Part shown: piece by piece, positions 1 to 17,076 of the stretch
Numbering within the stretch: the stretch's first letter is position 1
Layout of the letters: each line of letters begins with the position of its first letter
IMG/VR virus record: IMGVR_UViG_3300035034_001691
Reading direction: 5' to 3' (one strand)
Origin: an uncultured virus (IMG/VR IMGVR_UViG_3300035034_001691)
Lineage: Duplodnaviria > Heunggongvirae > Uroviricota > Caudoviricetes
DNA: 20,000 bases
Translations under genes and position numbers: made by a program
The notes under the pieces: model-generated
Seen by the model: the letters and a program-made list of their open reading frames with translations, nothing else
Told to the model about the DNA's origin: nothing
Database searches by the model: none

Positions 1-2211
1 GATGCAGAAGAGCAAGTTAAAGATTTTCCTAATACCTATCTCTACAGTGACGAAGGTGAAATGTTATCTGCATTTCTTGATCTAATAGAAGATGCCGATA
101 TGTTAACTGGTTGGAATAGTGAAGGATATGATATTCCGTATACAGTTAACCGTGTTGCAAGAGTATTAAGTAAGAATGATACTAGAAGATTTTGTTTATG
201 GGATCAACTTCCAAAGAAACGACTCTATGAAAAATACGGTAAAGAAGCAGTAACATTTGATTTAATTGGCAGAGTTCATCTCGATAGTTTAGAATTGTAT
301 CGTAAATATAATTATGAAGAAAGACATTCTTATCGGTTGGATGCTATTGGTGAAATTGAAATAGGTGAAAACAAAACAGTATACGAAGGAACACTTGATC
401 AATTATATAATAATGACTTTAAAAAGTTTATTGAATATAACAGACAAGATACTTCGTTGCTTGATAAACTTGATCGTAAACTTCGCTTTATTGATTTGTC
501 AAACGAACTAGCTCATTCTAATACTGTTTTATTGCAAACTACTATGGGAGCAGTTGCAGTTACCGAACAGGCTATCATAAACGAAGCACATGATAGAGGA
601 ATGGTAGTTCCTAATCGTCCAGTTGTTGACCGAGAGAATTCAAGTGCAGCCGGAGCATATGTTGCTTATCCAAAGAAAGGCTTGCATATGTGGTTAGCAT
701 CAATGGATTTAAATTCACTATATCCATCTGTTATTCGTGCATTGAATATGGCTCCGGAAGCAGTAGTTGGCCAATTACGACCAACCGATACCGATGCTTA
801 TATAAAAGAAAAGATGACTTTTGAGAAGAAGTCTTTTGCAGGAGCATGGGAAGGATTGTTTAGTTCTATTGAATACAAACATATGATAGAAAAAAATAGA
901 GGTAAAGATATTACCATCGATTGGGAGAACGGAGATGTTGATGTACTTAGCGGTGCAGAAACCTACGAACTTATATTCAATAGTAACAATCCTTGGATGA
1001 TTAGTGCTAATGGTACTATTTTTACAAATGAATTCGAAGCTGTCATTCCTGGACTTCTAAAACGTTGGTATTCAGAACGTAAAGAATTACAAGCAAAATT
1101 AAAAAAGGCAATTGATGCCAACAATAAAACCGAAATAGCCTTTTGGGACAAGCGTCAGCTTGTTAAGAAGATTAATTTGAATAGCTTATATGGTGCTATC
1201 TTAAATCCAGGTTGTAGGTTCTTTGATAAAAGAATTGGTCAATCAACTACACTTACTGGTAGAGGAATTGTTCAACATATGAGTGCAAAGGCAAACGAAG
1301 TAATAACAGGAGAATATGACCACGTTGGTAAGGCTGTTATATACGGTGATACCGATTCTGTTTATTTTAGTGCTTATCCTATACTAAAAGACGAAATAGA
1401 CAATGGTACTATTCCTTGGGAAAAGGAACGTATAATTCAGTTATATGATCAAGTAGCAGAAGAAACAAATAAATCATTTACTAGATTTATGGCTGATGCA
1501 TATCATTGTCCTAAATCTCGCTCAGGTGTTATTGCAGCAGGTAGAGAAATTGTTGCACAGAGTGGATTGTATATTACTAAGAAAAGATATGCTGCCCTAG
1601 TAATTGACGACGACGGTAACAGAAAAGATATAGACGGTCAAATTGGTAAGGTTAAAGCAATGGGATTAGATTTGCGGCGATCAGATACTCCGGTTTTTAT
1701 GCAAGACTTCCTTAAGGATATTCTACTTATGGTTTTAACAACAAAAGACGAAAACGAAATTTTAAAAAAGATTGAAGATTTTCGTAGTCTATTTAAGGAA
1801 CGGCCTGGTTGGGAAAAAGGAACTCCCAAACGTGTTAACAACCTAAGTAAATTTCGAGATTTAGAAGAAGAAAAAGGAAAGGCAAATATGCCAGGACACG
1901 TTCGTGCATCACTTAATTGGAATACTTTAAAAAGAATGAATAGTGATCGTTACAGCCAAGACATAGTTGATGGAATGAAAGTTATCGTTTGTAAACTAAG
2001 GCCAAATCCATTAGGATTTACAAGTGTTGCATTTCCAACAGACGAACTACGCTTACCGCAATGGTTTAAGGATTTACCTTTTGATGACAGAGCAATGGAA
2101 AATACTATCATTGATAATAAAATTGATAACTTAATAGGTGTCTTGAATTATGACATCGAATCTACAAAACAAGACACAACATTTGGAAGTTTATTTGATT
2201 TTGGAGATTAA
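1..2211 (+). CDS. polB: Family B DNA polymerase (T4 gp43-like), 5'-truncated; frame is open from base 1
   Basis: ExoII GWNSEGYDIPY, ExoIII YNRQD, polymerase motifs SMDLNSLYPS, KKINLNSLYG, YGDTDS and KKRYA. C-terminal aromatic clamp-binding-like tail TTFGSLFDF. No stop in frame from 1 to 60. Confidence 0.96.
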   Translation, partial: DAEEQVKDFPNTYLYSDEGEMLSAFLDLIEDADMLTGWNSEGYDIPYTVNRVARVLSKNDTRRFCLWDQLPKKRLYEKYGKEAVTFDLIGRVHLDSLELYRKYNYEERHSYRLDAIGEIEIGENKTVYEGTLDQLYNNDFKKFIEYNRQDTSLLDKLDRKLRFIDLSNELAHSNTVLLQTTMGAVAVTEQAIINEAHDRGMVVPNRPVVDRENSSAAGAYVAYPKKGLHMWLASMDLNSLYPSVIRALNMAPEAVVGQLRPTDTDAYIKEKMTFEKKSFAGAWEGLFSSIEYKHMIEKNRGKDITIDWENGDVDVLSGAETYELIFNSNNPWMISANGTIFTNEFEAVIPGLLKRWYSERKELQAKLKKAIDANNKTEIAFWDKRQLVKKINLNSLYGAILNPGCRFFDKRIGQSTTLTGRGIVQHMSAKANEVITGEYDHVGKAVIYGDTDSVYFSAYPILKDEIDNGTIPWEKERIIQLYDQVAEETNKSFTRFMADAYHCPKSRSGVIAAGREIVAQSGLYITKKRYAALVIDDDGNRKDIDGQIGKVKAMGLDLRRSDTPVFMQDFLKDILLMVLTTKDENEILKKIEDFRSLFKERPGWEKGTPKRVNNLSKFRDLEEEKGKANMPGHVRASLNWNTLKRMNSDRYSQDIVDGMKVIVCKLRPNPLGFTSVAFPTDELRLPQWFKDLPFDDRAMENTIIDNKIDNLIGVLNYDIESTKQDTTFGSLFDFGD

Positions 2212-2228
2212 TCAAAAGATGATTTTTC

Positions 2229-2257
2229 TTGACAATACGAAAAATTCATAGTAATAT
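2229..2257 (+). promoter_or_regulatory. Sigma70-type promoter for the clamp/transglycosylase operon
   Basis: TTGACA 2229-2234, 17-nt spacer, TAATAT 2252-2257 (TATAAT also at 2255-2260). Lies in the intergenic gap upstream of a GGAG RBS and ATG 2280. Confidence 0.7.
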
Positions 2258-2279
2258 AATAAATCATACGGAGAATAAT

Positions 2280-3011
2280 ATGAAAGATATACTTAAAGAT
2301 ATTATAGCGCATACACATTCATTGGGGTTCTTATCCCTAGTTAAGGTGACAAACGAAGAAGACAAGACTAAAATTGAAACTATGTCTGAAGATAGAACAG
2401 TTATACTAATGGCTGCAACTAAAAATAAGGTTGATGAATTTATTGGTACGTTTGGCATGCCAAACTTAGGACTTCTGGCTTTTCATCTAAAAAATCCAGA
2501 ATACGAAAAAGATAGTGTTCTTGAAATTAAGACTGATGTTCGAAAGGGAGAAACTATCAATACACATATTCATTTTGAGAATTCAAATGGTGATTTTGAA
2601 AATGATTATAGATTTATGAATCAAGCTCACATTGAAGAAAAATTAAAGAATGTGAAGTTTAAGGGAGCAACATGGAACGTTGAACTTGAACCCGCTATTG
2701 ATTCTATAAGAAGAATGAAGTTACAGGCTGCTGGAAATCCAGATGAATTAATAGTTAATGTTAAAACCGAAGACGGTGCATTAGTAATGACATTTGGTGA
2801 TGAATCATCACATGCAGGAAAATTTATTTTTCAAAGTAATATAACAGGTGAATTAAAGCACACATGGTCTTGGCCTGTTGCTCAAACCCTTGCTATACTT
2901 AGCTTAGATGGTAAGATAACTATGAGATTATCAGATCAGGGCGCAATGAAGATATCTGTTGATAGCGGATTAGCTACATACGATTATATTCTTCCAGCGC
3001 AGGCTAAATGA
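2280..3011 (+). CDS. Probable DNA polymerase sliding clamp (gp45/PCNA-like)
   Basis: 243 aa from ATG 2280 (GGAG RBS). Size, alternating beta/alpha pattern, C-terminal YDYILPAQ strand and position directly after polB fit a phage clamp. No catalytic motif to confirm. Confidence 0.6.
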   Translation: MKDILKDIIAHTHSLGFLSLVKVTNEEDKTKIETMSEDRTVILMAATKNKVDEFIGTFGMPNLGLLAFHLKNPEYEKDSVLEIKTDVRKGETINTHIHFENSNGDFENDYRFMNQAHIEEKLKNVKFKGATWNVELEPAIDSIRRMKLQAAGNPDELIVNVKTEDGALVMTFGDESSHAGKFIFQSNITGELKHTWSWPVAQTLAILSLDGKITMRLSDQGAMKISVDSGLATYDYILPAQAK

Positions 3012-4606
3012 TTAACAGAGATTTAACCTCAACACAAAACGATTATGCGTTTTTTCTTCCTGCATTAAGTGGTTTCTATGCCACTTATGTAGGTAAACAA
3101 CGCTTTGGTGAATATGTAGATAAGACTCGTATACCTTCTAATTTTAACAACGGAGTTGAAAGTCTCAATTACCTAAATAAAAAAGAAGGAGCATTTCATT
3201 ACAAATGGTCACTTTATTCAGCAGGACATGCTGAATTAGATGTTAATAAGGATTCACCTAAAGAAGATATGATCCGAAATAGAGATCGTGAAAATTCTTG
3301 GGTACTTGGTGACAGTGGTGGTTTCCAGATTGGTAAGGGAGTGTGGGAAGGCAATTGGAAGGATCCAAGTTGTCCTAAAGCAATGAAGAAAAGAACAGAT
3401 GTTCTTAGTTGGATGGACAAATATATGGATTACGGAATGATATTAGATATTCCGGCCTGGGTAGCTCGTTCACCTGCAGGTGCAGCGGCAACAGGTATTA
3501 ATTCATATCAAGGAGCAGTTGACGCTACTAGAATTAATAATGATTATTTTATTAAGAATAGAAATGGTAATTGTAAATTTCTAAACGTTCTGCAGGGTGA
3601 AACATTTCAAGAAGCCGACGATTGGTATTTTCAGATGCGTGATTTTTGTGATCCAAAGAAATATCCAAATGAACATTTTGAAGGATGGTCAATGGGTGGA
3701 CAAAATATGTGTGATGTCCACCTTGTGTTAAAGCGTTTGATTGCACTTCGTTTTGATGGATATTTAGAAAAGGGTGTTCATGATTTTATGCACTTTTTGG
3801 GTACTTCAAAATTAGAATGGGCATGTTTGTTAACAGATATACAGCGTGCAGTTCGAAAACATCATAATGAAAATTATACAATAACATTTGATTGTGCAAG
3901 TCCTTTCTTAGCTACTGCTAATGGACAAATTTATTTACAGACTGAAACAGAACCTATGGGTAAATGGACATATCGAATGTTACCAAGTATTGATAACAAA
4001 AAATATGCAACTGATCCTCGTGGATTTCGTGATACTGTTTTACAAGATGGTATTTTTGATAAGAAAGATTCAGCCGGCAATGTATTAATAACTAGAGACT
4101 TCGTTGATTCTCCTATAACAGATGGATTAGGGGTATCAGACGTGTGTATCTATAAGCCGGGAGACCTAAATAAAATAGGTAAAGAAGGAAGAACTTCTTG
4201 GGACAGCTTTTCATATGCTATACAAATGGGACATAATGTTTGGTCTCATATCAATGCAGTACAGGAAGCTAATAGAATGTGTGATTCTGGTACATTTCCA
4301 CATATGCTAATTGCTTCGAAATTACACGGAAAGAAGTTTCGAACTTATAAGAGAGAATTTTTTCGTGATATAGTTGAAGATATTTTTGCTACAGACGACA
4401 GAGAAAAGGCAGAAGCGTTAGTTGAAGAGCATCGTGCATATTGGATGGATATTCCTGGTACACGAGGTGCAATTGGTAAGAAGACCATTAACTCAACAAC
4501 ATTTTTTCATAGTCTTTTTGAAGAAGAAGAAACTGTTACACAAGAAGAAACCTTCACAGAAGAAAATGAAGAGTTATTGGAGAAATTAGAGAATGACCTT
4601 GACTAA
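3008..4606 (+). CDS. dpdA: tRNA-guanine transglycosylase-fold protein, DpdA-like 7-deazaguanine insertion enzyme
   Basis: TGT motifs in the expected order: DSGGFQ, MILDIP, VLQG, SMGG, HFLG, TFDCASP. Lacks the C-terminal CxCxxC Zn site of bacterial Tgt. Clustered with folE and queE. ATGA overlap with the clamp gene. Confidence 0.82.
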   Translation: MINRDLTSTQNDYAFFLPALSGFYATYVGKQRFGEYVDKTRIPSNFNNGVESLNYLNKKEGAFHYKWSLYSAGHAELDVNKDSPKEDMIRNRDRENSWVLGDSGGFQIGKGVWEGNWKDPSCPKAMKKRTDVLSWMDKYMDYGMILDIPAWVARSPAGAAATGINSYQGAVDATRINNDYFIKNRNGNCKFLNVLQGETFQEADDWYFQMRDFCDPKKYPNEHFEGWSMGGQNMCDVHLVLKRLIALRFDGYLEKGVHDFMHFLGTSKLEWACLLTDIQRAVRKHHNENYTITFDCASPFLATANGQIYLQTETEPMGKWTYRMLPSIDNKKYATDPRGFRDTVLQDGIFDKKDSAGNVLITRDFVDSPITDGLGVSDVCIYKPGDLNKIGKEGRTSWDSFSYAIQMGHNVWSHINAVQEANRMCDSGTFPHMLIASKLHGKKFRTYKREFFRDIVEDIFATDDREKAEALVEEHRAYWMDIPGTRGAIGKKTINSTTFFHSLFEEEETVTQEETFTEENEELLEKLENDLD

Positions 4607-4787
4607 TCGTATAGAATCATTAACTGAAAAACATAATATTCTTGACAAACAAGTGAAAGACGCTTATAATAATAAACTGCCTACAGAAGAAATAAGCAAA
4701 CTTAAAATCAAAAAATTAGCAATAAAAGATGAATTATTTAAAGTAGAGAAAGAATTACAATGGAAAGACAATACTCAGGAAACGTAA
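4593..4787 (+). CDS. DUF465/YdcH-like small coiled-coil protein
   Basis: Pattern RIESLTEKHNILDKQV...ISKLKIKKLAIKDEL is typical of DUF465 (L..KH..LD..I ... LK..KL.LKDE). Confidence 0.7.
   Translation: MTLTNRIESLTEKHNILDKQVKDAYNNKLPTEEISKLKIKKLAIKDELFKVEKELQWKDNTQET
4642..4670 (+). promoter_or_regulatory. Internal consensus sigma70 promoter inside the DUF465 gene
   Basis: Exact TTGACA (4642-4647), 17 nt, TATAAT (4665-4670), about 90 nt upstream of the 4760 ORF. Confidence 0.6.
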
Positions 4788-5293
4788 CTTCTAATGATGT
4801 TTCCACTTTTATAGGTGTTGAAGTAGAACATACTCCTGCTTATGGAATGAAAACATTGTTTCTTACTAAGAAACCACTAGCAGAAGATATATTAGAATAT
4901 GCTAGAATAAAAGGTTGTGAACACATTTATCTTGGGGCTAATCAATCGTTTAATCCTACTTTACCAAATGGTACAGACGAAGAAATAAAATATTGGACTA
5001 ATTTAATGAAAGAGCTATCAAAGAGTGAAATGTGGTTTACACTCGATTATGATATTAAATATCACGAGTTTGTAACTGAGTTTTGTTGGGGAGAGTATGA
5101 TCGTTTTATTCCTCTCATAAGTGTAAAGATACCAAACATTAAATCATTAAATTATAACGCCTGCCTAAAAATAGATGACAGTGACTTTCGTAAATCAAAT
5201 CCAGGCGTATGGGTTCATCCAATCCATGATTTACAAGACAGACGAGTATTTACAGACTGGTCAAAATATACAAAAGACGAGATAATATCATAA
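4760..5293 (+). CDS. Hypothetical protein of the deazaguanine cluster; possible degenerate QueE/radical-SAM-fold paralogue
   Basis: 177-aa ORF overlapping both neighbours. Segment-wise resemblance to QueE N-terminal strands but no CxxxCxxC. Confidence 0.6.
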   Translation: MERQYSGNVTSNDVSTFIGVEVEHTPAYGMKTLFLTKKPLAEDILEYARIKGCEHIYLGANQSFNPTLPNGTDEEIKYWTNLMKELSKSEMWFTLDYDIKYHEFVTEFCWGEYDRFIPLISVKIPNIKSLNYNACLKIDDSDFRKSNPGVWVHPIHDLQDRRVFTDWSKYTKDEIIS

Positions 5294-5727
5294 TGAAGAA
5301 TTATTGGTTTAATAAAGAACCAGAAAAGAATAACTTAGATCCAATAAGAAGTATTTGGATTACTTTTAGGAAAGAAGGAATACATTTTTATCCCGGAGCA
5401 GACACTAATGCTGCTCTTGCGACCGGAGATGAATATGATGTTAGTTTCTTAGGATACGAACATAGACATTTATTTCATTTTCGTGTTCGAATTGAAGTGT
5501 TTCACAACGATAGAGATATTGAATTTATACAATTTAAGCGTTGGTTAGAATCATTATATCAAGAAAAACTTGAATTAAATCATAGGTCTTGCGAAATGAT
5601 AGCAGATGATTTATATAAGCAAATTAATAAAAGGTACCCCGGTCGCTTTGTAGAAATAGAAGTAGCAGAAGACGGCGAAAATGGTGCCACACTATTTTAT
5701 CCAAGAAAGGATGAGAATGAAAATTGA
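5293..5727 (+). CDS. QueD/PTPS-like T-fold protein with DpdL-type motif (candidate CDG decarboxylase or atypical QueD)
   Basis: Metal-binding His set (H31; LGYEHRHLF = LxxxHRHxF), SCEMIA (cf. QueD T[AS]ExxA) and terminal EVAEDGENGA strand. Lacks the catalytic Cys of the QueD CxxxHGH motif. Confidence 0.75.
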   Translation: MKNYWFNKEPEKNNLDPIRSIWITFRKEGIHFYPGADTNAALATGDEYDVSFLGYEHRHLFHFRVRIEVFHNDRDIEFIQFKRWLESLYQEKLELNHRSCEMIADDLYKQINKRYPGRFVEIEVAEDGENGATLFYPRKDENEN

Positions 5728-5905
5728 ACTCGAACGGATATTTGATGATTTAGATCAATTCCGAGATTATTGTCGTTTTAATGGCAAGGTTTTTAATGAG
5801 GCAGATCTTTATAAGAATTCTAGTGATAGTTGGAGAGCATACCAGGTTTATACTAGAAGCAAAGGTAGACCACGGCAAACAAGAGATAATAGGTACAAGA
5901 GATGA
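5717..5905 (+). CDS. Small hypothetical phage protein
   Basis: ATG 5717 after AAGGA; MKIELERIFDDLDQFRDYCRF...; basic C-terminus; ATGA overlap with the glycosyltransferase gene. Confidence 0.65.
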   Translation: MKIELERIFDDLDQFRDYCRFNGKVFNEADLYKNSSDSWRAYQVYTRSKGRPRQTRDNRYKR

Positions 5906-6996
5906 CCATTTATATTGTAGATATTGAGGCGGTTGATAATCGCTATACTAAACAATGGAAAGAGTATCTTCCAAAGCAAATACAAAAGAGAACAACTGAA
6001 GAAGTAGTTGTAATCTCTGGAGGAGATGTTCCTCAATCTACAACGCCAGGTGCCTTTTTAAACTTTGGCGGAACTAATATCTACAAAAGCAATCAGTTAA
6101 TGCAAATTGGTGAATTGTTTTGTAATGGTCAAATAAAGAATAATGATTATTTCTTGTACACTGATGCATGGAATCCAACCGTTATACAATTAAAGTATAT
6201 GGCTTCCTTGCTAGGAATACACATTAAAATTGGTGGGATGTGGCATGCAGGAAGTTATGATCCACAAGATTTCCTTGGTCGATTAATTGGTGACCAACCC
6301 TGGATTCGTTCTGCTGAACATTCAATGTTCAGCAGTTACGATCATAACTTCTTTGCAACCGATTACCATATCCAAATGTTTTCTAATGGAATATTTGGAT
6401 GGGATAATGGTAAAGGATGGGATATAACTGATCCTAAATTAGCAAATGACACTATTGTTCGTGCAGGATGGCCGATGGAATATCTATCAGGATCATTAAC
6501 ACAATATAAAGGAATGCCAAAAGAAAATTTAATTCTTTTCCCCCATCGCATTGCACCCGAAAAACAAGTTGAGATCTTTCGTGATCTCAAACAGCATATG
6601 CCAGAATATGAGTTTATTGTTTGTCAAGATCAAACTCTTACAAAGAACGAATATTATAATCTCTTAGGAAGAGCTAAAATAGTTTTTTCTGCTAACCTAC
6701 AAGAAACACTAGGCATAAGTTGGTATGAAGGACTTCAAGTTAATTGTATTCCAATGGTACCAAATCGTCTTTCATACACTGAAATGGCAATATATGATTT
6801 TAAATATCCTTCTAATTGGACTTCTAGTTTTGACAATTATATAGAAAATCAAGAACTGATTAAAAATCAAATTAAAGAATATATAGAGAATTATTCTACA
6901 TACATTCCTAAAATTGCAATTCAATGTAGGATGTTAGAGCAAGAATTCTTTAATGGAGATAGAATTTACGAGGTAATAAATGAATTCGAGCGATAA
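5902..6996 (+). CDS. GT-B (GT4-like) glycosyltransferase, GTDC1/DUF3524-like
   Basis: FPHRIAPEK donor-binding motif, Ex7E motif QETLGISWYEG, then CIPMVPNRLSYTEM. Confidence 0.85.
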   Translation: MTIYIVDIEAVDNRYTKQWKEYLPKQIQKRTTEEVVVISGGDVPQSTTPGAFLNFGGTNIYKSNQLMQIGELFCNGQIKNNDYFLYTDAWNPTVIQLKYMASLLGIHIKIGGMWHAGSYDPQDFLGRLIGDQPWIRSAEHSMFSSYDHNFFATDYHIQMFSNGIFGWDNGKGWDITDPKLANDTIVRAGWPMEYLSGSLTQYKGMPKENLILFPHRIAPEKQVEIFRDLKQHMPEYEFIVCQDQTLTKNEYYNLLGRAKIVFSANLQETLGISWYEGLQVNCIPMVPNRLSYTEMAIYDFKYPSNWTSSFDNYIENQELIKNQIKEYIENYSTYIPKIAIQCRMLEQEFFNGDRIYEVINEFER

Positions 6997-7294
6997 GAAC
7001 TATGACACGGTTTTCAATATAAGTACAGATTTAAATTATTATACCGATTTTAATATGTACTATCAGCCTAGTATGACGATCAATAAAATAAACACATCTG
7101 ATATCATTTATACTATAAAAACAGGTATAGATGAAAAGGAAATAGATTTTGAAAATTATATGCCTCCACTCGAAAAGATAAAAGAAATGTGTGAACATTA
7201 TCCTCCATTAGCTTCTCAATATGAAAAATTTAAATTATTGTATATGATGTCAAAAGATGATTACGATGGAAGAAAAGACAGAGGTGAAATATAA
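6980..7294 (+). CDS. Hypothetical protein
   Basis: 104-aa ORF with GAGG RBS, overlapping neighbours; C-terminal EMCEHYPPL helix. Confidence 0.6.
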   Translation: MNSSDKNYDTVFNISTDLNYYTDFNMYYQPSMTINKINTSDIIYTIKTGIDEKEIDFENYMPPLEKIKEMCEHYPPLASQYEKFKLLYMMSKDDYDGRKDRGEI

Positions 7295-7623
7295 TGGGAT
7301 TAACAATTAATCCAATAGCAAGTTCGGGAACAAAAATATCTGATACTATTCGTAATAACTTTGATTCTATTCCAGAAGTGAGAATTAATGGTAATATAAG
7401 ATGTGATAGAATAGACGCTGATGTACTCTTTTCATCATATCTATCTACAGCAAATATAGAAAACGTAGATGAAGCTATACGCAATTTGCAAGAACGACTA
7501 TTAATAGTTGAAAGAGATCTTGTAATGGAAGAAAAGTACCCCGAACTTAAAAGAGCAGGTACTCGGTATGTTGAAATTAAAAACAAATACGAAACATTGG
7601 AGATTATCAAAGGTGAAAAATAA
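7294..7623 (+). CDS. Hypothetical protein
   Basis: 109-aa ORF, TAATG coupling, GAGGTG RBS; C-terminal coiled coil with MEEKYPEL. Confidence 0.6.
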   Translation: MGLTINPIASSGTKISDTIRNNFDSIPEVRINGNIRCDRIDADVLFSSYLSTANIENVDEAIRNLQERLLIVERDLVMEEKYPELKRAGTRYVEIKNKYETLEIIKGEK

Positions 7624-8110
7624 ACAATATTATGACTGGAACGACGTTGACGATGCTTGTAACACTTTTCTCAAACAAATGTTACGAGATGAATGGAAAC
7701 CTGATTATATTGTTGGTATAACAAGGGGTGGACTTACACTCGCAGTTATGTTGTCTCATATTATCCAAATTCCGTGTCACACTCTTAATGTTAGCCTTAG
7801 AAGTAATCCAGACGACGTTGAATCAAATCTTTGGATGGCAGAAGATGCGTTTAATGGAAAAAAAATACTTATAGTAGATGACATAAACGATAAAGGTGCT
7901 ACTTTTGAATGGATACAAAAAGATTGGAATTCTTCGTGTTGTCCACTTGACGGTAAATGGACCGATGGAACTATATGGGGTGGAAACGTTCGTTTTGCAG
8001 TAATGACCGATAACATATCAAGTGGATTTGGTTCTGTTAATTATGTATTTGAAGAGATTGATAAGAACGAAGAAAACGTTTGGTTAGTTTATCCTTGGGA
8101 GTCTGAATAA
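7613..8110 (+). CDS. Type I purine phosphoribosyltransferase (Gpt/xanthine-guanine PRT-like)
   Basis: IVGITRGGL PPi loop, PRPP-binding ILIVDDINDKGAT, C-terminal WLVYPWE typical of Gpt-like PRTases. Likely GTG start at 7613 after GGAG. Confidence 0.88.
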   Translation: MKNKQYYDWNDVDDACNTFLKQMLRDEWKPDYIVGITRGGLTLAVMLSHIIQIPCHTLNVSLRSNPDDVESNLWMAEDAFNGKKILIVDDINDKGATFEWIQKDWNSSCCPLDGKWTDGTIWGGNVRFAVMTDNISSGFGSVNYVFEEIDKNEENVWLVYPWESE

Positions 8111-8361
8111 TGAAAGTATATTCAATACAAATACCGTTTAGTAAGGATGAAGAAGGCCATGATGATTGGATTTATGTAACAACCGAACATCCAAATGGTA
8201 TTGTAGGTGATAGAATTGTTGTTACTTACAATTCCGAACAGGAAGCAAAAGAAGCAGGTGCTATTTGGAAAAGATTTCGGGTAATTGAATTTAACACTGT
8301 TGCTCCCGAAGAAAAGGCATGGGCTGAACAACAAGTAAAAGATAGTAGGTTTGACGGTTAA
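8110..8361 (+). CDS. Hypothetical protein
   Basis: 83-aa ORF coupled to the PRTase gene by a TAATG overlap. Confidence 0.6.
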   Translation: MKVYSIQIPFSKDEEGHDDWIYVTTEHPNGIVGDRIVVTYNSEQEAKEAGAIWKRFRVIEFNTVAPEEKAWAEQQVKDSRFDG

Positions 8362-8364
8362 TTC

Positions 8365-8392
8365 TTGACAAAACCTAAATAAAGTGTATAAT
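8365..8392 (+). promoter_or_regulatory. Sigma70-type promoter for folE-queE
   Basis: TTGACA 8365-8370, 16 nt, TATAAT 8387-8392 in an intergenic gap. A late-like CTAAATA lies at 8375-8381. Confidence 0.75.
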
Positions 8393-8405
8393 AAAATATA
8401 CTTAC

Positions 8406-8438
8406 AAGACATCCTCGTCTTTAATAACTCGGAAAGGA
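8406..8438 (+). promoter_or_regulatory. Candidate folE leader hairpin/pseudoknot able to occlude the RBS
   Basis: Stem AAGAC (8406-8410)/GTCTT (8417-8421). Loop ATCCTC contains TCCT, complementary to the AGGA RBS at 8435-8438. Confidence 0.35.
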
Positions 8439-8444
8439 AATTTA

Positions 8445-9131
8445 TTGACTATCTCTAATATTATTAAGAATAGAATTTTAAAAGAAGGTAATACATATTG
8501 GGCTGGAGATAATATCAGCCAACATATTCAAGAAGGTGAGCTAGAAGAATTAACTGACGAGCTCACAGAAAAATTTGAAGCAGTGCTTGACTCGCTTGTT
8601 ATAGATCGATTAAATGATCCTAATAGCAAGGACACAGGTAGAAGACTAGCGAAAATGTATATACACGAATTAATGCGTGGAAGATATTATCCAATGCCAG
8701 ATGCAACTTCGTTCCCAAACGAAGTCGAAGATGGTTATACAGGAATGTTGGTGGTGCGAAGTGAAATTAAATCAGTTTGCTCGCATCACCATCAACCTGT
8801 TACAGGTGTTGCTTACATTGGAATTATTGCTGCAGAAACATTGATAGGACTCAGCAAATATACAAGAATTGCACAATGGTGTGCAAGACGTGGTACATTA
8901 CAAGAAGAATTATGTAATGATATTGCAAAAGAAATAATTTCTGCAACAGGCAGCAATGATGTCGGAGTTTACATACAAGCAACTCACGGATGTTGCGAAA
9001 ACAGAGGCATAATGGCACATTCTAGTTTGACACAGACTACTGTGCTAAAAGGTGCATTTAAACATGATCCTGCCACAAAGCAAGAATTCTTTGATAACAT
9101 CAAACTACAACAACAGTGGGCACCAAGATGA
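8445..9131 (+). CDS. folE: GTP cyclohydrolase I
   Basis: DPNSKDTGRRLAKMY, SVCSHHHQP (Zn Cys/His), IGLSKYTR, LQEEL, HGCCENRG. TTG start after AGGA. Confidence 0.95.
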   Translation: MTISNIIKNRILKEGNTYWAGDNISQHIQEGELEELTDELTEKFEAVLDSLVIDRLNDPNSKDTGRRLAKMYIHELMRGRYYPMPDATSFPNEVEDGYTGMLVVRSEIKSVCSHHHQPVTGVAYIGIIAAETLIGLSKYTRIAQWCARRGTLQEELCNDIAKEIISATGSNDVGVYIQATHGCCENRGIMAHSSLTQTTVLKGAFKHDPATKQEFFDNIKLQQQWAPR

Positions 9132-9997
9132 AATTAAGATATAGCGAAGCATTTTATTCTATACAAGGTGAAGGTAAGTTTGTTGGAGTGCCTAGTGTAT
9201 TTCTTCGAACTTTTGGTTGCAATTTTCGATGCAAGAAATTTGGTCTTCCTAAAGATCAAGAAGTTGGAAAATATAATCCAGAAGTAGAACAACTTCTAGA
9301 GAATGGTATTGACCAATATGAAAAATTTGAAGACCTTCCGATTATACACACAGGATGTGACACTTATGCTAGTATCTATCCTGAATTTAAACGTTTTATG
9401 AAAAATGAAACAGTAAACGACGTAGTTGATAATTTATTGAAATTAACTCCAACCGGCAAATGGTCTTTAGATAATGGACAAGATATACATTTTATTTTAA
9501 CAGGCGGTGAACCTTTGCTTGGTTGGCAAAAATTGTATGTTGAGTTGTTTAACCATCCTAACATGAAGGATCTAAAAAATGTTACTTTCGAGACTAACAC
9601 TACACAACATCTTCAATCAAATCTTAAAGAGTTCTTCGGATATCAAGACCACATACGAATTACGTTCTCATGTTCGCCTAAGCTCACAGTTAGCGGCGAA
9701 TCTTGGAATGCTGCAATACAGCCTGATATTGCTCGTCAATACTTTGATGTTCCTAATAGCGACATGTATTTTAAGTTTGTTGTCGCTAATGACGATGATG
9801 TGGAAGATGTTCGTCGTGCTGTTGATGCTTACCGCAAAGCCGGTATTAATTGTCCTGTCTACCTTATGCCGCTGGGTGGAAGAAGTGAAGAATATTATCT
9901 CAATAAAGATAGAATCGTTGAAATTGCGATGCAAGAAGGTTGGAGATATACCCCAAGGCTCCATGTCGAAGTCTTCGGAAACGCATGGGGAACATGA
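9128..9997 (+). CDS. queE: 7-carboxy-7-deazaguanine synthase (radical SAM)
   Basis: EAFYSIQGEG, VFLRTFGCNFRC...GCDT, LTGGEP, FETN, SCSPKL, YFKFVV, PRLH. ATG 9128 overlaps the folE stop (ATGA). Confidence 0.93.
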   Translation: MKLRYSEAFYSIQGEGKFVGVPSVFLRTFGCNFRCKKFGLPKDQEVGKYNPEVEQLLENGIDQYEKFEDLPIIHTGCDTYASIYPEFKRFMKNETVNDVVDNLLKLTPTGKWSLDNGQDIHFILTGGEPLLGWQKLYVELFNHPNMKDLKNVTFETNTTQHLQSNLKEFFGYQDHIRITFSCSPKLTVSGESWNAAIQPDIARQYFDVPNSDMYFKFVVANDDDVEDVRRAVDAYRKAGINCPVYLMPLGGRSEEYYLNKDRIVEIAMQEGWRYTPRLHVEVFGNAWGT

Positions 9998-10042
9998 TGC
10001 CAGTATCAAAGCATTTATGTATTCAAAGCAATAGGAAAGTAA

Positions 10043-10210
10043 ATGAAAATATCAACACAAGACTTAGTTAACAAACTTGTTCATATAATGGAAGAGATTA
10101 AAACTAAGAAATTTACAAAAGAAGAGTTACAACAGATTGAACAAAAAATTGTTAATCCTCTCGAAGAAATTGTAACAGGATTAGAAAATACATACAAGGA
10201 TAAATTATGA
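10043..10210 (+). CDS. Small hypothetical protein (55 aa, not in the ORF track)
   Basis: AGGA RBS at 10033-10036, ATG 10043, MKISTQDLVNKLVHIMEEIKTKKF...YKDKL, ATGA overlap with the next gene. Fills an otherwise empty gap. Confidence 0.65.
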   Translation: MKISTQDLVNKLVHIMEEIKTKKFTKEELQQIEQKIVNPLEEIVTGLENTYKDKL

Positions 10211-10587
10211 AATGGTTACGCAAAATCTTTGGCAGTGAAGAAGTCAAAGGTATAAAGACAGAGGAAGATATAAGGCGAGAAGCTTTAGCTAAAGAAAAAG
10301 AAACCGCTACAAAAAAAGGCGAAGCTTGGGTAGCTGTTTTAGACACGCACGTAAATCCACACGACATTAAGAATGGATTTTTTGAACTTGACTGGAATAA
10401 CGAATTTATTGAGCAATTGGTAGATGCCGGTTATAACGGAGAATCAAATGAAGAAATCATCAACGCTTGGTTTGTTACATTGATAACTCAAATGTTAGAA
10501 GAAGAAGGTCTCAACGATACTCCGAGAGATGCAGGATATATTAAAATAGTACCAAGTAGTAGAAAAGGCAGAAGCGAAATTTCATGA
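10207..10587 (+). CDS. Hypothetical phage protein
   Basis: 126 aa, coupled on both sides by ATGA overlaps; motif GFFELDWNNEFI. Confidence 0.75.
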   Translation: MKWLRKIFGSEEVKGIKTEEDIRREALAKEKETATKKGEAWVAVLDTHVNPHDIKNGFFELDWNNEFIEQLVDAGYNGESNEEIINAWFVTLITQMLEEEGLNDTPRDAGYIKIVPSSRKGRSEIS

Positions 10588-11594
10588 CTTATATTATAGT
10601 AGATACCGCCAACTTATTCTTTCGCGCTCGACATGTTGTTAGGGGTGATTTAGATACAAAAATAGGTATGTGTTTTCATATTACCCTCAATGCTATAAGA
10701 AAAGCATGGAAGGATTTTGATGGGAAACATGTGGTCTTTTGTTTAGAAGGTCGATCTTGGCGAAAGGATTATTACGAACCTTATAAAAAGAATAGATCAG
10801 AAGATAGAGCAGCTATGTCTGCAAAGGAACAAGAAGAAGAAAAACTCTTCTGGGAAGTGTTTGATGAGTTTAAAGATTTTATAAACGAAAAGACAAACTG
10901 TACTGTTTTGAGACATCCTAATTTAGAAGCTGATGATCTTATTGCAGGATGGATTCGTGCTCATCCTGATGATAACCATGTTGTACTTTCTACCGATGGT
11001 GATTTTGCTCAATTGATATCCCCTACTGTATCACAATACAATGGTGTTACGAATACTACCATTACACACGAAGGATATTTTGACGATAAAGGCAAGCCTA
11101 TAATCGATAAAAAAACTAAAAAAGAAAAGCCTGCACCTAATCCTAACTGGTTGTTATTTGAAAAGTGCATACGTGGCGACAAGAGTGATAATGTGTTCCC
11201 TGCTTATCCCGGCGCACGAAAAAAGGGTACTGCAAAAAAGGTTGGAATGTTAGAAGCTTTTGAAGACAAAAATACAAAAGGATATAACTGGAACAATTTC
11301 ATGTTGCAACGCTGGACTGATCATAACGATGTAGAACATAGAGTTATAGACGATTATAAAAGAAACGTTGAACTTTGTGATCTTACTGCACAACCGGATC
11401 ATGTACAAGAAATGATAAACGAAACTATCAGCGAATCTACTAATAATCCAAAGGATGTTAGTCAAGTTGGTATATTATTGGCAAAATTTTGTGCCAAATG
11501 GGATCTTCGTCGCGTTAGTGATAACATCCTTACATATAATGAACAATATAGTTCGAGGTATTTAAATGACAATAAATGCAAAATCTCTGCTTAA
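10584..11594 (+). CDS. rnh: T4 RNase H-like / FEN-family 5'-3' exonuclease
   Basis: IIVDTANLFFR, RKDYYEPYKKNR, LEADDLIA, LSTDGDFAQL and GDKSDNV: the acidic metal-binding motifs of the 5' nuclease family. Confidence 0.9.
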   Translation: MTYIIVDTANLFFRARHVVRGDLDTKIGMCFHITLNAIRKAWKDFDGKHVVFCLEGRSWRKDYYEPYKKNRSEDRAAMSAKEQEEEKLFWEVFDEFKDFINEKTNCTVLRHPNLEADDLIAGWIRAHPDDNHVVLSTDGDFAQLISPTVSQYNGVTNTTITHEGYFDDKGKPIIDKKTKKEKPAPNPNWLLFEKCIRGDKSDNVFPAYPGARKKGTAKKVGMLEAFEDKNTKGYNWNNFMLQRWTDHNDVEHRVIDDYKRNVELCDLTAQPDHVQEMINETISESTNNPKDVSQVGILLAKFCAKWDLRRVSDNILTYNEQYSSRYLNDNKCKISA

Positions 11595-12042
11595 AGGCAA
11601 ATTTTGGATCGTTAACGAAAACGATAAGAGCTTAGGTACAATTACAAAAGAAGAAGATAGGTTTGTCTACCAATGTCAAACCGGTACCATTGTGTTTGAC
11701 AACGAAAGCAAGTTAAAGAAACATTTAGGAAAAATTGTTTGGACTTCAACGGAAGTTGAAGATAAAACTGAAATAAAGATAAATGAAATTTATGGATTTC
11801 CTATTAGTACAAAGTCTGCAACCGCAATGTTTGACATAAAAAGAAAGCTTCCTCTCTTTACAAAGAGTGAAAAATCAAAAAGTTTGTATTGTGCTGGTTA
11901 TTATATAATAAACTTTGACAAAGGATGGGTTAAATCTTTTTGTCCAAAAGTATCAACAATTGAAGGATATGAATACAAAGGTCCTTTTAAGACAGAAATT
12001 GAAATGAAAGCAGCGTTGAAGAATGCCAATAGAACCACTTAA
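11566..12042 (+). CDS. Hypothetical phage protein
   Basis: 158-aa ORF with GAGG RBS, overlapping the rnh end. Confidence 0.75.
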   Translation: MTINAKSLLKGKFWIVNENDKSLGTITKEEDRFVYQCQTGTIVFDNESKLKKHLGKIVWTSTEVEDKTEIKINEIYGFPISTKSATAMFDIKRKLPLFTKSEKSKSLYCAGYYIINFDKGWVKSFCPKVSTIEGYEYKGPFKTEIEMKAALKNANRTT

Positions 12043-12262
12043 TACATTACCATTACAACAATACCTGCAACGTGTTAAAACGGCTGATCGTTCAAATGCA
12101 AAGGAAGTTAAGCTTTCGATGAACGAAGCCAAAGACCTTGCATTTACAATTGGTCTAGTTATGTCGCGAATGGAAGGTGACTTAGAGAGACTTGTAAAAG
12201 AATCAAATGAAACTGCAACTGAAATAATTAAGGTTGAAGTAGGAAGTAAAACAGGATGGTAA
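12023..12262 (+). CDS. Hypothetical protein
   Basis: 79-aa ORF overlapping the upstream gene, co-oriented. Confidence 0.65.
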   Translation: MPIEPLNTLPLQQYLQRVKTADRSNAKEVKLSMNEAKDLAFTIGLVMSRMEGDLERLVKESNETATEIIKVEVGSKTGW

Positions 12263-12280
12263 AAATACGAATATAAAAAT

Positions 12281-12312
12281 GATAAATATGCGTAGTTAAA
12301 GGGGACTACGCA
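12281..12312 (+). promoter_or_regulatory. T4-late-like promoter motif plus RBS-enclosing hairpin
   Basis: GATAAATA 12281-12288. Stem TGCGTAGT (12289-12296)/ACTACGCA (12305-12312) encloses AAAGGGG and ends just before ATG 12314. Confidence 0.5.
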
Positions 12313-12313
12313 A

Positions 12314-12607
12314 ATGTCAAGACCAAAGCCTACAATATTATTAGAACACACTGACCGAGAAACATACAAAGTAGAACAGATATTAGAAGCAGATGCTATA
12401 TGGGCAGTCTACTATAAAGGAAAACCTTTCAATTTAAAATCATCTAATATGTTAACCAGTTATCCTGGTCCAAAGTATAAGAAGGTTTCCTTTTCTAATC
12501 CAGGACATGCTAGAAATTTAGCTAAAAAGATGAATGATCTTTTTAAAACAACAGAGTTTAGTGTCTATCAACTAGTTGAAGGAATCATGCTTCGAGATGA
12601 ACTCTGA
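12314..12607 (+). CDS. Hypothetical phage protein
   Basis: 97 aa, MSRPKPTILLE...YPGPKYKKVSFSNPGHA; basic. Confidence 0.75.
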   Translation: MSRPKPTILLEHTDRETYKVEQILEADAIWAVYYKGKPFNLKSSNMLTSYPGPKYKKVSFSNPGHARNLAKKMNDLFKTTEFSVYQLVEGIMLRDEL

Positions 12608-13019
12608 AACATATACGAAGATTTTTCTTAAAGCCAATAATATAGCAGTTAATGAACCGTCTATAAAAGAACATCACCATAGGTGGTTTAAGAACACACG
12701 TCATCGAGAAACTATGGGTGGATTACGTCTGACAGAAGATGGACTTAACATGGTTAGAGATCTTGATTTAAGACTTTATGAAATCCCATTTTATGATAAA
12801 CTAAAAATGACTACTCAAGTTTTAATATTCCTTGATAAATTTATTGATTGTCCGTATTATGTTAATGAGAGATCTATATATGTAGCAGGAGAGCGAAAGG
12901 CAGTAGAATTAACAATGTTTTCAGGAAACCTTCTCAAATACGGTCTAAACAAAGCTATGAAAAAAACATTAGGTGAAAATGTAGACATAGATATCGAAGA
13001 TATCAATAAAGACACTTGA
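12597..13019 (+). CDS. Hypothetical phage protein
   Basis: Probable ATG 12597 overlapping the upstream gene; GGLRLTEDG...FIDCPYY. Confidence 0.7.
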   Translation: MNSETYTKIFLKANNIAVNEPSIKEHHHRWFKNTRHRETMGGLRLTEDGLNMVRDLDLRLYEIPFYDKLKMTTQVLIFLDKFIDCPYYVNERSIYVAGERKAVELTMFSGNLLKYGLNKAMKKTLGENVDIDIEDINKDT

Positions 13020-13044
13020 CAACCTTAGAATGTGCTGTTATAAT
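13016..13044 (+). promoter_or_regulatory. Perfect consensus sigma70 promoter with extended -10
   Basis: TTGACA 13016-13021, 17 nt, TG-n-TATAAT (TG 13036-13037, TATAAT 13039-13044). AAGGAG RBS before ATG 13090. Confidence 0.85.
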
Positions 13045-13089
13045 TTTAAAACAATTAAGCACTGACGTTTAAAATTTAAGGAGACACAA

Positions 13090-14184
13090 ATGGCTACAGA
13101 TATTGATATTAACGTTCGTCAGGTTACCCCTAAGGGTGCCAAGCGAGCAATTCTACGGGCACACCGACGCAAGCGTCCTATCTTCTTGTGGGGTCAGCCA
13201 GGTATTGGTAAGTCTGACATTGTTAATCAACTAGGTGACGATCTTAATGCTCATGTCATTGACGTTCGGTTGTCTTTGTGGGAACCAACTGATATTAAGG
13301 GTATCCCATATTTTGATCCAGAGATTAAGAAGATGGTATGGGGTTCCCCGGTTGAACTTCCAGATCAAGAACTTGCTTCTCAACACAAGAATATCATCTT
13401 GTTTTTAGACGAGATGAATTCAGCTGCACCTTCTGTGCAGGCTGCTGCTTACCAGCTTATTCTTAATCGAAAGGTTGGTACTTACACTTTGCCCGATAAT
13501 GTTTACATTATTGCAGCAGGTAACCGCGAAGGTGATCGCGGTGTTGTTAACCGTATGCCTGCTCCTCTTGCTAATCGATTCGTTCACATTGAGATGATTT
13601 CATCTTATGATGATTGGTTTGAATGGGCTGTTAAGAACGGTGAACATCCAGATGTTATTGGTTACATTACATTTGACAAGGCTTCGTTGAACGATTTCCG
13701 TCCTAACAGTGGTCGTTCTTTTGCAACTCCTCGTTCTTGGTCGTTTGTTAGTGAATTGATTTACGACGACGACAACGAAGAGACAACTATGGACCTCGTG
13801 AGCGGTTCAATTGGTGAGGGGCTTGCTATTAAATTCATGGGTCACCGTAGGAATTCCGCAGGACTTCCTAACCCAACTGATATCTTGAGCGGGAAGGTAG
13901 AGAAGATTTCTACTAAGGAAGTCAGTGCTATGTACTCCTTAACAGTAGCTCTTTGCTACGAACTAAAAGACTCAAACGAGAAAGACGACGAAAAGGTCTT
14001 CGCTAAAAAGTTTGATCGCTTCCTAAAGTTTTCCATGGACAACTTTGATACAGAAATGGTTGTTATGGGAGTCAAGATTGCTATGACTCAATACGGTCTA
14101 GTAGTAGACGTTGATGAAGCACCGCACTTTGAGAAGTTTCACAATAAGTACGGTAAGTACATCACGGCTGCAAATCGAGCATAA
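13090..14184 (+). CDS. MoxR/dynein-related AAA+ ATPase
   Basis: Walker A GQPGIGKS, Walker B ILFLDE, AAGNR sensor, PLANRF arginine finger, TPRSW. Adjacent to a vWA gene. Confidence 0.9.
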   Translation: MATDIDINVRQVTPKGAKRAILRAHRRKRPIFLWGQPGIGKSDIVNQLGDDLNAHVIDVRLSLWEPTDIKGIPYFDPEIKKMVWGSPVELPDQELASQHKNIILFLDEMNSAAPSVQAAAYQLILNRKVGTYTLPDNVYIIAAGNREGDRGVVNRMPAPLANRFVHIEMISSYDDWFEWAVKNGEHPDVIGYITFDKASLNDFRPNSGRSFATPRSWSFVSELIYDDDNEETTMDLVSGSIGEGLAIKFMGHRRNSAGLPNPTDILSGKVEKISTKEVSAMYSLTVALCYELKDSNEKDDEKVFAKKFDRFLKFSMDNFDTEMVVMGVKIAMTQYGLVVDVDEAPHFEKFHNKYGKYITAANRA

Positions 14185-14188
14185 ACTA

Positions 14189-14220
14189 AAAAGACGGGTG
14201 TTGAAAAACATCCGTCTTTT
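14189..14220 (+). terminator. Rho-independent terminator (possibly bidirectional)
   Basis: AAAAGACGGGTGTT-GAAA-AACATCCGTCTTTT: 14-bp stem with one G-U pair, GNRA loop and flanking A/T runs, immediately after the ATPase stop. Confidence 0.85.
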
Positions 14221-14223
14221 CTC

Positions 14224-14252
14224 TTGATTAATTGCGAAATTTGCTTTATAAT
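14224..14252 (+). promoter_or_regulatory. Sigma70-type promoter for the vWA gene
   Basis: TTGATT 14224-14229, 17 nt, TATAAT 14247-14252. GAGGAG RBS before ATG 14281. Confidence 0.7.
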
Positions 14253-14280
14253 TAAATATAAAGTAACAGAGGAGTGTTCT

Positions 14281-15534: not shown

Positions 15535-15535
15535 G

Positions 15536-15805
15536 ATGAAGCTTAAGAAACCTAATCCATTGGATTACTTTGGAGTGAGGAGGGTGCCGGTTGCCCCTCC
15601 TCACTTCGAATACGAAATCCTTAATACTGTTATTTTAAAGTATTGGGAATCTAATGTAATTGAATGGATTGAACGTAAACTATCCGGACGTTATTATTTT
15701 GATGACACTACTGAAATAATAGATGGTAACATAATCACCACTAAAAAAATAGGATTTGAAAAGCCTAGTGAATTAAGCTACTTCATAATTTCATATCCAA
15801 ATTAA
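15536..15805 (+). CDS. Hypothetical phage protein
   Basis: 89-aa ORF directly after the vWA gene; IGFEKPSELSYF. Confidence 0.7.
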   Translation: MKLKKPNPLDYFGVRRVPVAPPHFEYEILNTVILKYWESNVIEWIERKLSGRYYFDDTTEIIDGNIITTKKIGFEKPSELSYFIISYPN

Positions 15806-15812
15806 TCTATGT

Positions 15813-15846
15813 GATAAATAATATGCGTACTAAATGACGCATATTA
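15813..15846 (+). promoter_or_regulatory. T4-late-like promoter motif plus perfect 10-bp hairpin abutting the RBS
   Basis: GATAAATA 15813-15820. Stem TAATATGCGT (15819-15828)/ACGCATATTA (15837-15846), then GGAGG and ATG 15857. Confidence 0.55.
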
Positions 15847-15856
15847 GGAGGCATAG

Positions 15857-17036: not shown

Positions 17037-17044
17037 CATAAATA
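17037..17044 (+). promoter_or_regulatory. T4-late-like promoter motif CATAAATA
   Basis: One mismatch to TATAAATA, intergenic, directly upstream of a structural-type gene with a GAGGAG RBS. Confidence 0.5.
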
Positions 17045-17076
17045 CAAGTAACAAAAAGGTTAACGAGGAGTTCTAA

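Follow-up and report, generated by a model that had tools for sequence, protein, structure and literature searches.

We analyzed a window of 20,000 nucleotides of DNA from an uncultured virus (IMG/VR IMGVR_UViG_3300035034_001691; Caudoviricetes). It corresponds, in reverse complement, to bases 1-19,996 of a 76-kb viral record, itself ~21% complete. The gene of interest encodes a glycosyltransferase (GT) that an earlier reading of the sequence (the original prediction) had likened to the queuosine mannosyltransferase family (GTDC1/QTMAN, DUF3524) and had placed in a deazaguanine operon. The gene cluster is indeed there, as the neighbors of the GT include DpdL, a candidate DpdA3-type transglycosylase, FolE and a QueE-like enzyme. 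On the 5' side of the GT the order is a family B DNA polymerase and p532, followed by a DUF465 protein, p177, p144 and p74; on the 3' side lie a purine-type phosphoribosyltransferase (PRTase), FolE, the QueE-like radical SAM enzyme and an RNase H-like exonuclease.

5902..6996, + strand: GT-B (GT4-like, retaining-type) glycosyltransferase with a QTMAN-related C-terminal domain, as judged by fold model, profiles and motifs
6529..6564, + strand: motif LILFPHRIAPEK, of the HRxxxxK type and common to QTMAN (residues 210-221 of the GT)
6676..6786, + strand: motif block KIVFSANLQETLGISWYEGLQVNCIPMVPNRLSYTEM (KIVF...PNRLSYTEM; residues 259-295), which holds E268-x7-E276 and the PxRL[AS]YxE element common to QTMAN
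3008..4606, + strand: p532, candidate DpdA3-type DNA transglycosylase of 532 residues, resembling PA5oct QCG76197.1
4760..5293, + strand: p177, conserved 177-residue protein with no family match
5293..5727, + strand: p144, DpdL, a QueD-like T-fold protein with the LxxxHRHxF motif and a proposed 7-carboxy-7-deazaguanine decarboxylase
5681..5905, + strand: p74, conserved 74-residue protein with no family match, the end of which overlaps the GT start by 4 nucleotides
7568..8110, + strand: purine-type PRTase (xanthine and hypoxanthine-guanine PRTases head its NCBIfam matches, none of which reaches the cut-off)
8445..9131, + strand: GTP cyclohydrolase I (FolE), by family profiles
9116..9997, + strand: QueE-like radical SAM enzyme of the 7-carboxy-7-deazaguanine synthase type, by family profiles

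The GT reading frame contains no internal stops and translates to a product of 364 residues. A word-indexed search returned at least 8000 matches, and a profile made from 30 close homologues matched, at E≤0.001, 1485 representatives of clusters at 50%, mainly from aquatic metagenomes, 383 of them reaching E≤1e-30; given these representatives and the confident model described below, the gene is real. Among 113 diverse members brought into one alignment (27-70% identity), the residues kept across the family include His-115, Arg-216, Lys-221, Glu-268 and Glu-276. The window protein itself gave nothing significant against Pfam, PHROGs, NCBIfam, PADLOC or PDB sequences, and in a protein atlas it matched the viral clusters of its own family and nothing else. 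Among PDB sequences the family profile found only weak generic glycosyltransferase matches (best 8xsg at 3.8e-5), and Pfam Glycos_transf_1 (PF00534) was matched by 75 of the 113 members, not by the window protein.

The AlphaFold2 model, for which the 113-member alignment was the input, has a pLDDT (predicted local distance difference test) of 95.5 and a pTM (predicted template modeling score) of 0.93. Foldseek returned 402 PDB matches at E≤0.001, with BshA at the top (5d00, 8.4e-10) and the GT4 enzyme BA1558, MshA and glycogen synthases following. Among the best 50 rows of a VIA-align comparison covering 48,161 chains, the leading matches were sucrose-phosphate synthase 6kih (Z 25.9, r.m.s.d. 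3.2, 320 aligned) and BshA 6n1x (Z 25.3, r.m.s.d. 3.0, 306 aligned), with LmbT, GlgM, PglA and PimB' next. Sequence identity to these structural matches amounts to 8-13% by VIA-align and to 10-14% by Foldseek. The two Rossmann-like domains of the model align over their full length with solved GT4 enzymes, and the E-x7-E motif is a mark of retaining enzymes of the GT4 family. Judged by its model, the protein is a canonical GT-B, GT4-like glycosyltransferase. The same ranking placed the tetrahydrobiopterin glucosyltransferase 5zer 23rd (Z 19.9), the glycosyltransferase of phage HY126 30th (Z 19.0) and T4 alpha-glucosyltransferase (AGT; 1y6f) 32nd (Z 18.7, r.m.s.d. 4.1, 297 aligned); T4 beta-glucosyltransferase (BGT) was absent from the best 50 rows, and neither T4 enzyme was matched at the sequence level. 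The comparison with the T4 enzymes that had been proposed as a check gives no clear sign of a special structural affinity. The fold searches contain no QTMAN chain, the searched PDB set being apparently without any QTMAN/GTDC1 structure, and a bacterial QTMAN-family protein run against the PDB matched a GT1 fragment alone (E 0.002).

For the kinship with QTMAN, the reference set was 20 full-length open reading frames (ORFs) bearing QTMAN_N, from 20 bacterial loci; of 401 Pseudomonadota genomes sampled, 28 had a match to the domain (PF12038, now QTMAN_N) above its cut-off. The consensus of these 20 proteins reads WNHRWEYDK and HDFQGLa.lEA.A.Gc.p..P.RLAYpE, so that the QTMAN motifs given in the original prediction prove accurate, and both of the peptides that it quoted from the GT are present at residues 210-221 (nucleotides 6529-6564) and 259-295 (nucleotides 6676-6786). 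Alignment of the GT family with QTMAN by hhalign gave a probability of 99.4, an E of 4.6e-22 and a score of 163.6 over 172 columns, the match spanning residues 140-333 of the window GT. Taken singly against the GT-family profile, all 20 QTMAN proteins scored 85.8-115.2 and all 56 generic controls 12.8-48.8. The first control set consisted of 25 Glycos_transf_1 proteins from four alphaproteobacterial genomes (25 of 30 loci kept, the five left out having no central ORF of 300-470 residues) and scored 12.8-43.1; the second, of 31 proteins, combined 22 Glycos_transf_1 proteins from five QTMAN-bearing genomes with 9 Glyco_trans_1_2 proteins (31 of 50 loci kept, the others removed for ORF size or duplication) and scored no higher than 48.8. 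Reciprocally, with the QTMAN profile, 23 GT-family members scored 47.2-104.8 (median 70.1) and 25 controls 11.1-46.6 (median 27.5). The motifs follow the same division: HRxxxxK is found in 96 of 113 GT-family members, 20/20 QTMAN proteins and 0/56 generic GT4-type controls, and PxxLxYxE in 103 of 113, 18 of 20 and 1 of 56, respectively, whereas the generic ExxxxxxxE occurs in 107 of 113 GT-family members, 13 of 20 QTMAN proteins and 23 of the first 25 controls. At the level of sequence the GT is therefore nearer to QTMAN/GTDC1 than to generic GT4 enzymes, as had been claimed, and the resemblance of the motifs is beyond chance.

The part of the predicted QTMAN kinship that holds is the C-terminal half; the QTMAN_N domain that defines DUF3524 is not part of this protein as far as profiles can tell, with no match of PF12038 to the window GT at E≤10, to the 113 family members at E≤0.01 or anywhere in the 76-kb viral record. 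In the phylogeny suggested as a further check, a quick IQ-TREE analysis of 69 sequences (LG+G4) with numerous long control branches, QTMAN (20 rows, SH-aLRT 99) and the GT family (24 rows, SH-aLRT 100) form separate clades, the former without any GT-family member, and both fall in one open polytomy with 4 controls, which settles no sister relationship between them. Membership of the GT in the DUF3524/QTMAN_N family is accordingly not supported, QTMAN_N being undetectable and the protein falling outside the QTMAN clade. Because the kinship is confined to the C-terminal half and QTMAN_N is lacking, we regard the GT as a relative of QTMAN and not as a member, and the best explanation of the profile and motif data is a specific common ancestry of the nucleotide-sugar-binding half. 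QTMAN, as its family description (tRNA-queuosine alpha-mannosyltransferase) has it, mannosylates queuosine of tRNA, using GDP-mannose and acting on queuosine-34 of tRNA-Asp, and it joins QTMAN_N to a C-terminal domain of Glycos_transf_1 type; the homology would bear on catalysis and perhaps on the donor.

The identity of the neighbors is central to the deazaguanine context. DpdL is described as carrying LxxxHRHxF in place of the CxxxHGH of QueD (Cui, Hutinet et al., Nucleic Acids Research 2023, PMC10516641), and p144 carries Leu-53-x3-His-57-Arg-58-His-59-x-Phe-61. The tblastn match of p144 in phage phiST is CGPG_00067, the protein named DpdL in the same paper (PMC10516641), and hhalign of p144 against phiST DpdL gave a probability of 98.5 (E 2.8e-15). 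The p144 model (pLDDT 78.7) has the beta-beta-alpha-alpha-beta-beta order of a T-fold and superimposes on the 6-pyruvoyltetrahydropterin synthase (PTPS) 2dj6 with Z 11.5 and an r.m.s.d. of 2.6 (96 aligned, 22% identity), and on Escherichia coli QueD with a Foldseek E of 1.5e-4; the DpdL profile found no match among PDB sequences, so the T-fold is shown by structure comparison alone. By motif, profile and model, p144 is DpdL.

The assignment of p532 is less firm. Its identity to PA5oct QCG76197.1, which Supplementary Data S1 of PMC10516641 lists as DpdA3, with QCG76199.1 as DpdL, is 37% (E 7e-80), and on this similarity p532 is a candidate DpdA3-type DNA transglycosylase. A protein atlas gave as its lead for p532 a cluster that has tRNA-guanine transglycosylase (TGT) in 17% of its members. 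Stretches reading DSGGFQ, VLQGE, HFLGTS and FDCA may line up with TGT motifs. The DpdA3-type proteins differ in size, with 532 residues here, 540 in PA5oct and 259 in phiST (L087 7795-8574), a difference of ~270 residues. Prediction of a complex between the GT and p532 returned scores of 0.25 and 0.14 against a mark of 0.32, and speaks neither for nor against binding.

Elsewhere in the 76-kb record a canonical PTPS/QueD lies at contig positions 55222-55716, so that the contig encodes two PTPS-type proteins together with FolE; of the 92 ORFs scanned, none was recognizable by Pfam as a TGT. For p177 there was no match in the PDB or Pfam, and its homologue in ACP17 sits between FolE and DpdA2. 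Both p177 and p74 are candidates for the chemistry that would create a sugar acceptor. The PRTase may return to GTP, for use by FolE, the guanine that base exchange sets free, or may make a deazaguanine nucleotide.

The linkage of these genes was followed through 83 related loci, composed of 80 viral contigs and the phages Phosso, PA5oct and ACP17, many of the loci being incomplete (tblastn). The GT was present in 83, DpdL in 82, p74 in 79, p177 in 77, p532 in 69, PRTase in 68, FolE in 58 and QueE in 54; the PRTase, though inside the cluster in those 68 loci, did not show up close to the GT of Phosso, PA5oct or ACP17. In these three phages identity to the window proteins is 70, 63 and 53% for DpdL and 47, 42 and 35% for the GT, and DpdL abuts the GT in all three despite differing gene order. 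The GT of PA5oct (QCG76198.1) sits between the published DpdA3 and DpdL, and that of ACP17 between the published DpdA2 and DpdL. More distant GT homologues, at 21-25% identity (BUDD, X1, BCSR5 and BUCT-ZZ01), are still separated from DpdL by no more than 13 bp to 2.8 kb. The transglycosylase adjoining the GT is, in the table of PMC10516641, DpdA2 in ACP17, BUDD and BCSR5 and DpdA3 in PA5oct; because either can adjoin it, the GT tracks DpdL and a DpdA, and no single DpdA subtype.

Across 50,697 phage records the GT was found in 23 and DpdL in 29, with 18 having both. The 5 GT records without a DpdL match belong to one group of Xanthomonas/Erwinia phages; PhiXhv-15, the member examined, encodes a QueE-like protein (E 3.6e-34) and FolE ~115 kb from its GT. 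In this phage (L167 5738-8972) GlmS and a BshB-like GlcNAc-malate deacetylase homologue precede the distant GT, which hints at an amino-sugar donor, deacetylated later, in this lineage.

A scan of cellular genomes, one per species, yielded 25 loci, of which 8 resemble phage contigs binned into metagenome-assembled genomes (MAGs) and have the full module. In all of the other 17 a p532/DpdA3-like gene, at 23-32% identity, adjoins the GT or lies no more than ~1.7 kb away. Of these 17 loci, seven come from isolates (two Pelagibacterium, Devosia, Azospirillum, Shimia, Sulfitobacter and Thalassobius), and 4 have DpdL. Six loci were annotated with Pfam: a Vut_1/YhhQ-family gene lies directly 5' of the GT in three and one gene further in a fourth, a 583-599-residue protein of unknown family follows the p532-like gene in three (L102, L109 and L111), and a second Glycos_transf_1 gene occurs in two (L102 and L109). 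Neither FolE nor a canonical QueD was recognized in the bacterial islands. Integrases or resolvases and defense-type genes lie near the annotated loci, among them ABC-3C components, AAA_15/21 and GmrSD with an EcoRI-type methylase.

~4900-11500 of the alphaproteobacterial islands L099, L102, L109 and L111: YhhQ/Vut_1-like gene, GT and DpdA3-like gene

YhhQ is a transporter of queuosine precursors. The gene has its own column in the table of deazaguanine genes of Cui et al. (PMC10516641). The alphaproteobacterial islands look like a cellular DNA-modification system of this type that imports its base, and, since in the bacterial loci annotated the recurrent deazaguanine genes beside the GT are DpdA-like and YhhQ-family only, a role for the GT outside deazaguanine exchange is hard to reconcile with them. 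A fuller, phage-like form of the module also occurs in a cellular genome: on an alphaproteobacterial MAG chromosome (L112 5375-11323) the GT is flanked by a 205-residue PTPS-like protein and by DpdA3-like, DpdL and QueE-like proteins, beside a resolvase.

Taken together, the link of the GT to deazaguanine is strong by context, and the best explanation is that DpdA-type 7-deazaguanine DNA-modification systems have in this family a conserved accessory. With a little more belief than doubt, we propose that the GT attaches a sugar to a base derived from 7-deazaguanine and bound for DNA. By homology, FolE, QueD and QueE would make 7-carboxy-7-deazaguanine, DpdL would process this base, and the DpdA3-type transglycosylase would swap guanine in phage DNA for the deazaguanine. 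Drawing on a nucleotide sugar, the GT would then glycosylate the deazaguanine-derived base, most likely once it is in DNA, and the resulting sugar-bearing purine would shield the phage DNA from host nucleases. Candidate acceptors are the carboxyl of dCDG (the 2'-deoxynucleoside that has 7-carboxy-7-deazaguanine as its base), the exocyclic nitrogen (N2), a ring carbon or a hydroxylated derivative, the last possibly produced by p177, p74 or the 583-599-residue bacterial protein. Held more tentatively, and short of what we would call probable, is the wider picture in which phages and alphaproteobacterial islands make glycosylated 7-deazaguanine in DNA, which would be the first purine analogue of a genome to bear a sugar, by means of an enzyme that shares its ancestry with QTMAN; the decoration of deazaguanine with sugar would then be an old invention of prokaryotes or phages, later put to use on animal tRNA.

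Several observations weigh against the proposal that the GT sugars a deazaguanine of DNA. DpdL occurs without the GT in 11 records (phiST and four other phage lineages), and the DNA of phiST is reported to carry plain 2'-deoxy-7-deazaguanine (dDG; PMC10516641); as phiST has dDG and DpdL without a GT, the GT is dispensable for making dDG. The proposed product of DpdL, 7-deazaguanine, has no hydroxyl, so an O-glycoside requires some other acceptor, and no hydroxylase was recognized in the cluster. The QTMAN-like part of the GT is the donor-binding domain, and the homology is therefore silent on the acceptor directly; the N-terminal domains of the two families, aligned alone, score 16.4 (probability 0.6), and control N-halves reach 24.7 (hhalign). 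Searches of p532 against TGT, Pfam (E≤5), PADLOC and a PDB profile gave nothing significant, and hhalign probabilities were 7 against phiST DpdA3, 7.6 against ACP17 DpdA2 and 2.1 against four canonical TGTs. Since no profile test ties p532 to TGT, its DpdA3 label comes from the 37% identity, although the published DpdA3 of phiST is equally undetected by HMMER, which limits what such profile tests can say. No QueC was found among the 92 ORFs scanned, an absence that is not proven because the contig is only ~21% complete. We infer the function of the GT on deazaguanine from gene linkage and sequence homology.

The GT might instead glycosylate the free deazaguanine base, or a pterin or deazapurine precursor, before insertion by DpdA, or else make a small-molecule glycoside, and so never meet DNA. 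This is unlikely, yet it has more in its favor than the other alternatives: many of the top structural matches are small-molecule GT4 enzymes (BshA, MshA, LmbT, sucrose-phosphate synthase and SenB), the tetrahydrobiopterin glucosyltransferase 5zer matches at Z 19.9, FolE and two PTPS-type proteins are encoded with the GT, and DpdL, its most constant neighbor in phages, is modeled as accepting the free base only (PMC10516641, supplement). The biopterin enzyme, however, ranks no higher than 23rd and displays no special affinity to the GT, and a sugar on N9 would presumably prevent insertion by the transglycosylase. In the bacterial islands the GT keeps its DpdA3-like gene, whereas DpdL was found in only 4 of 17 and FolE and canonical QueD were not recognized.

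The glycosylation of a deazaguanine in DNA has also to be set against two readings that move the acceptor elsewhere. An ordinary phage glycosyltransferase, acting on hydroxymethyl-pyrimidine DNA, envelope sugars or protein and standing in the replication module through chance synteny, would fit the shared fold of T4 alpha-glucosyltransferase (Z 18.7) and the phage HY126 enzyme (Z 19.0), the thymidylate-synthase-family protein encoded on the contig and the failure of the window GT to match Pfam, PHROGs or NCBIfam. It is nevertheless very unlikely: the co-occurrence with DpdL and DpdA holds at 21-47% identity, across unrelated phages and bacterial islands; the thymidylate-synthase homologue adjoins dihydrofolate reductase and matches Thymidylat_synt at 2.3e-98, as expected of a real ThyA; and the T4 enzymes show no clear structural affinity to the GT. 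A QTMAN-like action on a queuosine-type base in host or phage tRNA, not DNA, is the most improbable of the readings. The closest detectable relatives of the GT are QTMAN-family proteins and the phage contig does encode tRNAs, but none of these 3 tRNAs has a GUN anticodon, QTMAN_N is undetectable in the GT, a separate canonical TGT lies elsewhere in 4/4 bacterial genomes checked, and the conserved partners are the published DpdA2 and DpdA3 transglycosylases of DNA type together with DpdL, not tRNA enzymes.

The glycosylated bases known from phage DNA are pyrimidines, and the 7-deazaguanine modifications of DNA known so far carry no sugar. The presence of the GT within DpdA/DpdL clusters predicts a new class of DNA base. 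We found no description of this GT, or of glycosylated deazaguanine in DNA, among the titles, abstracts and passages covered of the deazaguanine, DpdL, DpdA3 and QTMAN literature, a 2024 review in Microbiology and Molecular Biology Reviews and bioRxiv supplements being further sources that may bear on novelty; the accession QCG76198 has 0 occurrences in the supplement of Cui et al. (PMC10516641). A deazaguanine system was noted in PA5oct by Iyer et al. in 2021 (PMC7824862), PA5oct DNA is reported to resist five restriction enzymes, with the modification of G left unidentified (PMC12191111), and a 2026 review still terms deazaguanine incorporation in jumbo phages predicted (PMC13282480). The GT points to a candidate source of this modification in a therapeutic jumbo phage. 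Expression of ACP17 DpdL and DpdA2 in E. coli is reported to have given no dDG (Cui et al., PMC10516641), and the GT gene, which lies between the two but was outside the expression construct, is a possible reason. The prediction can be tested in the cultured phages that bear the GT, namely PA5oct, ACP17, Phosso, BUDD, X1, BCSR5 and BUCT-ZZ01, and the kinship with QTMAN would tie the glycosylation of deazaguanine in DNA to that in tRNA and offer a handle on the origin of QTMAN.

Apart from the cluster, the window contains at 13090-15534 a MoxR-type AAA ATPase and, after it, a DUF2201 metallopeptidase/VWA-like protein (phrog_1297 and phrog_1314), a conserved phage pair, and at 17077-18300 a 407-residue protein that matches tail fibers weakly and has the N-terminal domain of major tropism determinant (Mtd_N). 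The same phage contig (L084 6737-9878 and 18264-18947; L086 11818-13561) also encodes a ClpB-like double-AAA chaperone adjoining a DnaJ, a membrane protein of the Bax1-I (BI-1) family, and TelA paired with a 5-bromo-4-chloroindolyl phosphate hydrolysis protein.

Of the systems already known, QTMAN/GTDC1 is the one that the GT most resembles in sequence. Both have the GT-B fold and a connection with a nucleic-acid 7-deazaguanine base, one that for the GT we infer, and their C-terminal halves are specifically similar, with HRxxxxK and PxRL[AS]YxE common to both. They differ in that the GT has no detectable QTMAN_N and is partnered by DNA transglycosylases and DpdL, not by tRNA enzymes; because no queuosine-completing genes were found, its acceptor cannot be the cyclopentenediol of queuosine. 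Generic GT4 enzymes such as BshA, MshA and sucrose-phosphate synthase provide the best full-length structural matches and the EX7E-type motif is present in the GT, and the distant member in PhiXhv-15 is paired with a BshB-like deacetylase and GlmS, yet generic GT4 proteins score far below QTMAN against the GT-family profile. Like T4 alpha- and beta-glucosyltransferase, the GT is a phage GT-B enzyme and is proposed to act on a non-canonical DNA base after replication; unlike them, it would have a purine analogue and not hydroxymethylcytosine as its acceptor, no sequence link to them was found, and AGT stands below many small-molecule GT4 enzymes among its structural matches. In gene content the closest system is the DpdL/DpdA3 system for dDG of phiST, which likewise combines FolE, QueD, QueE, DpdL and a DpdA3-type protein (here the candidate p532), QueC not being found. 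The difference lies in the GT: phiST has no homologue and carries plain dDG, whereas here and in PA5oct, ACP17, Phosso, BUDD, X1, BCSR5 and BUCT-ZZ01 the gene is built into the cluster.

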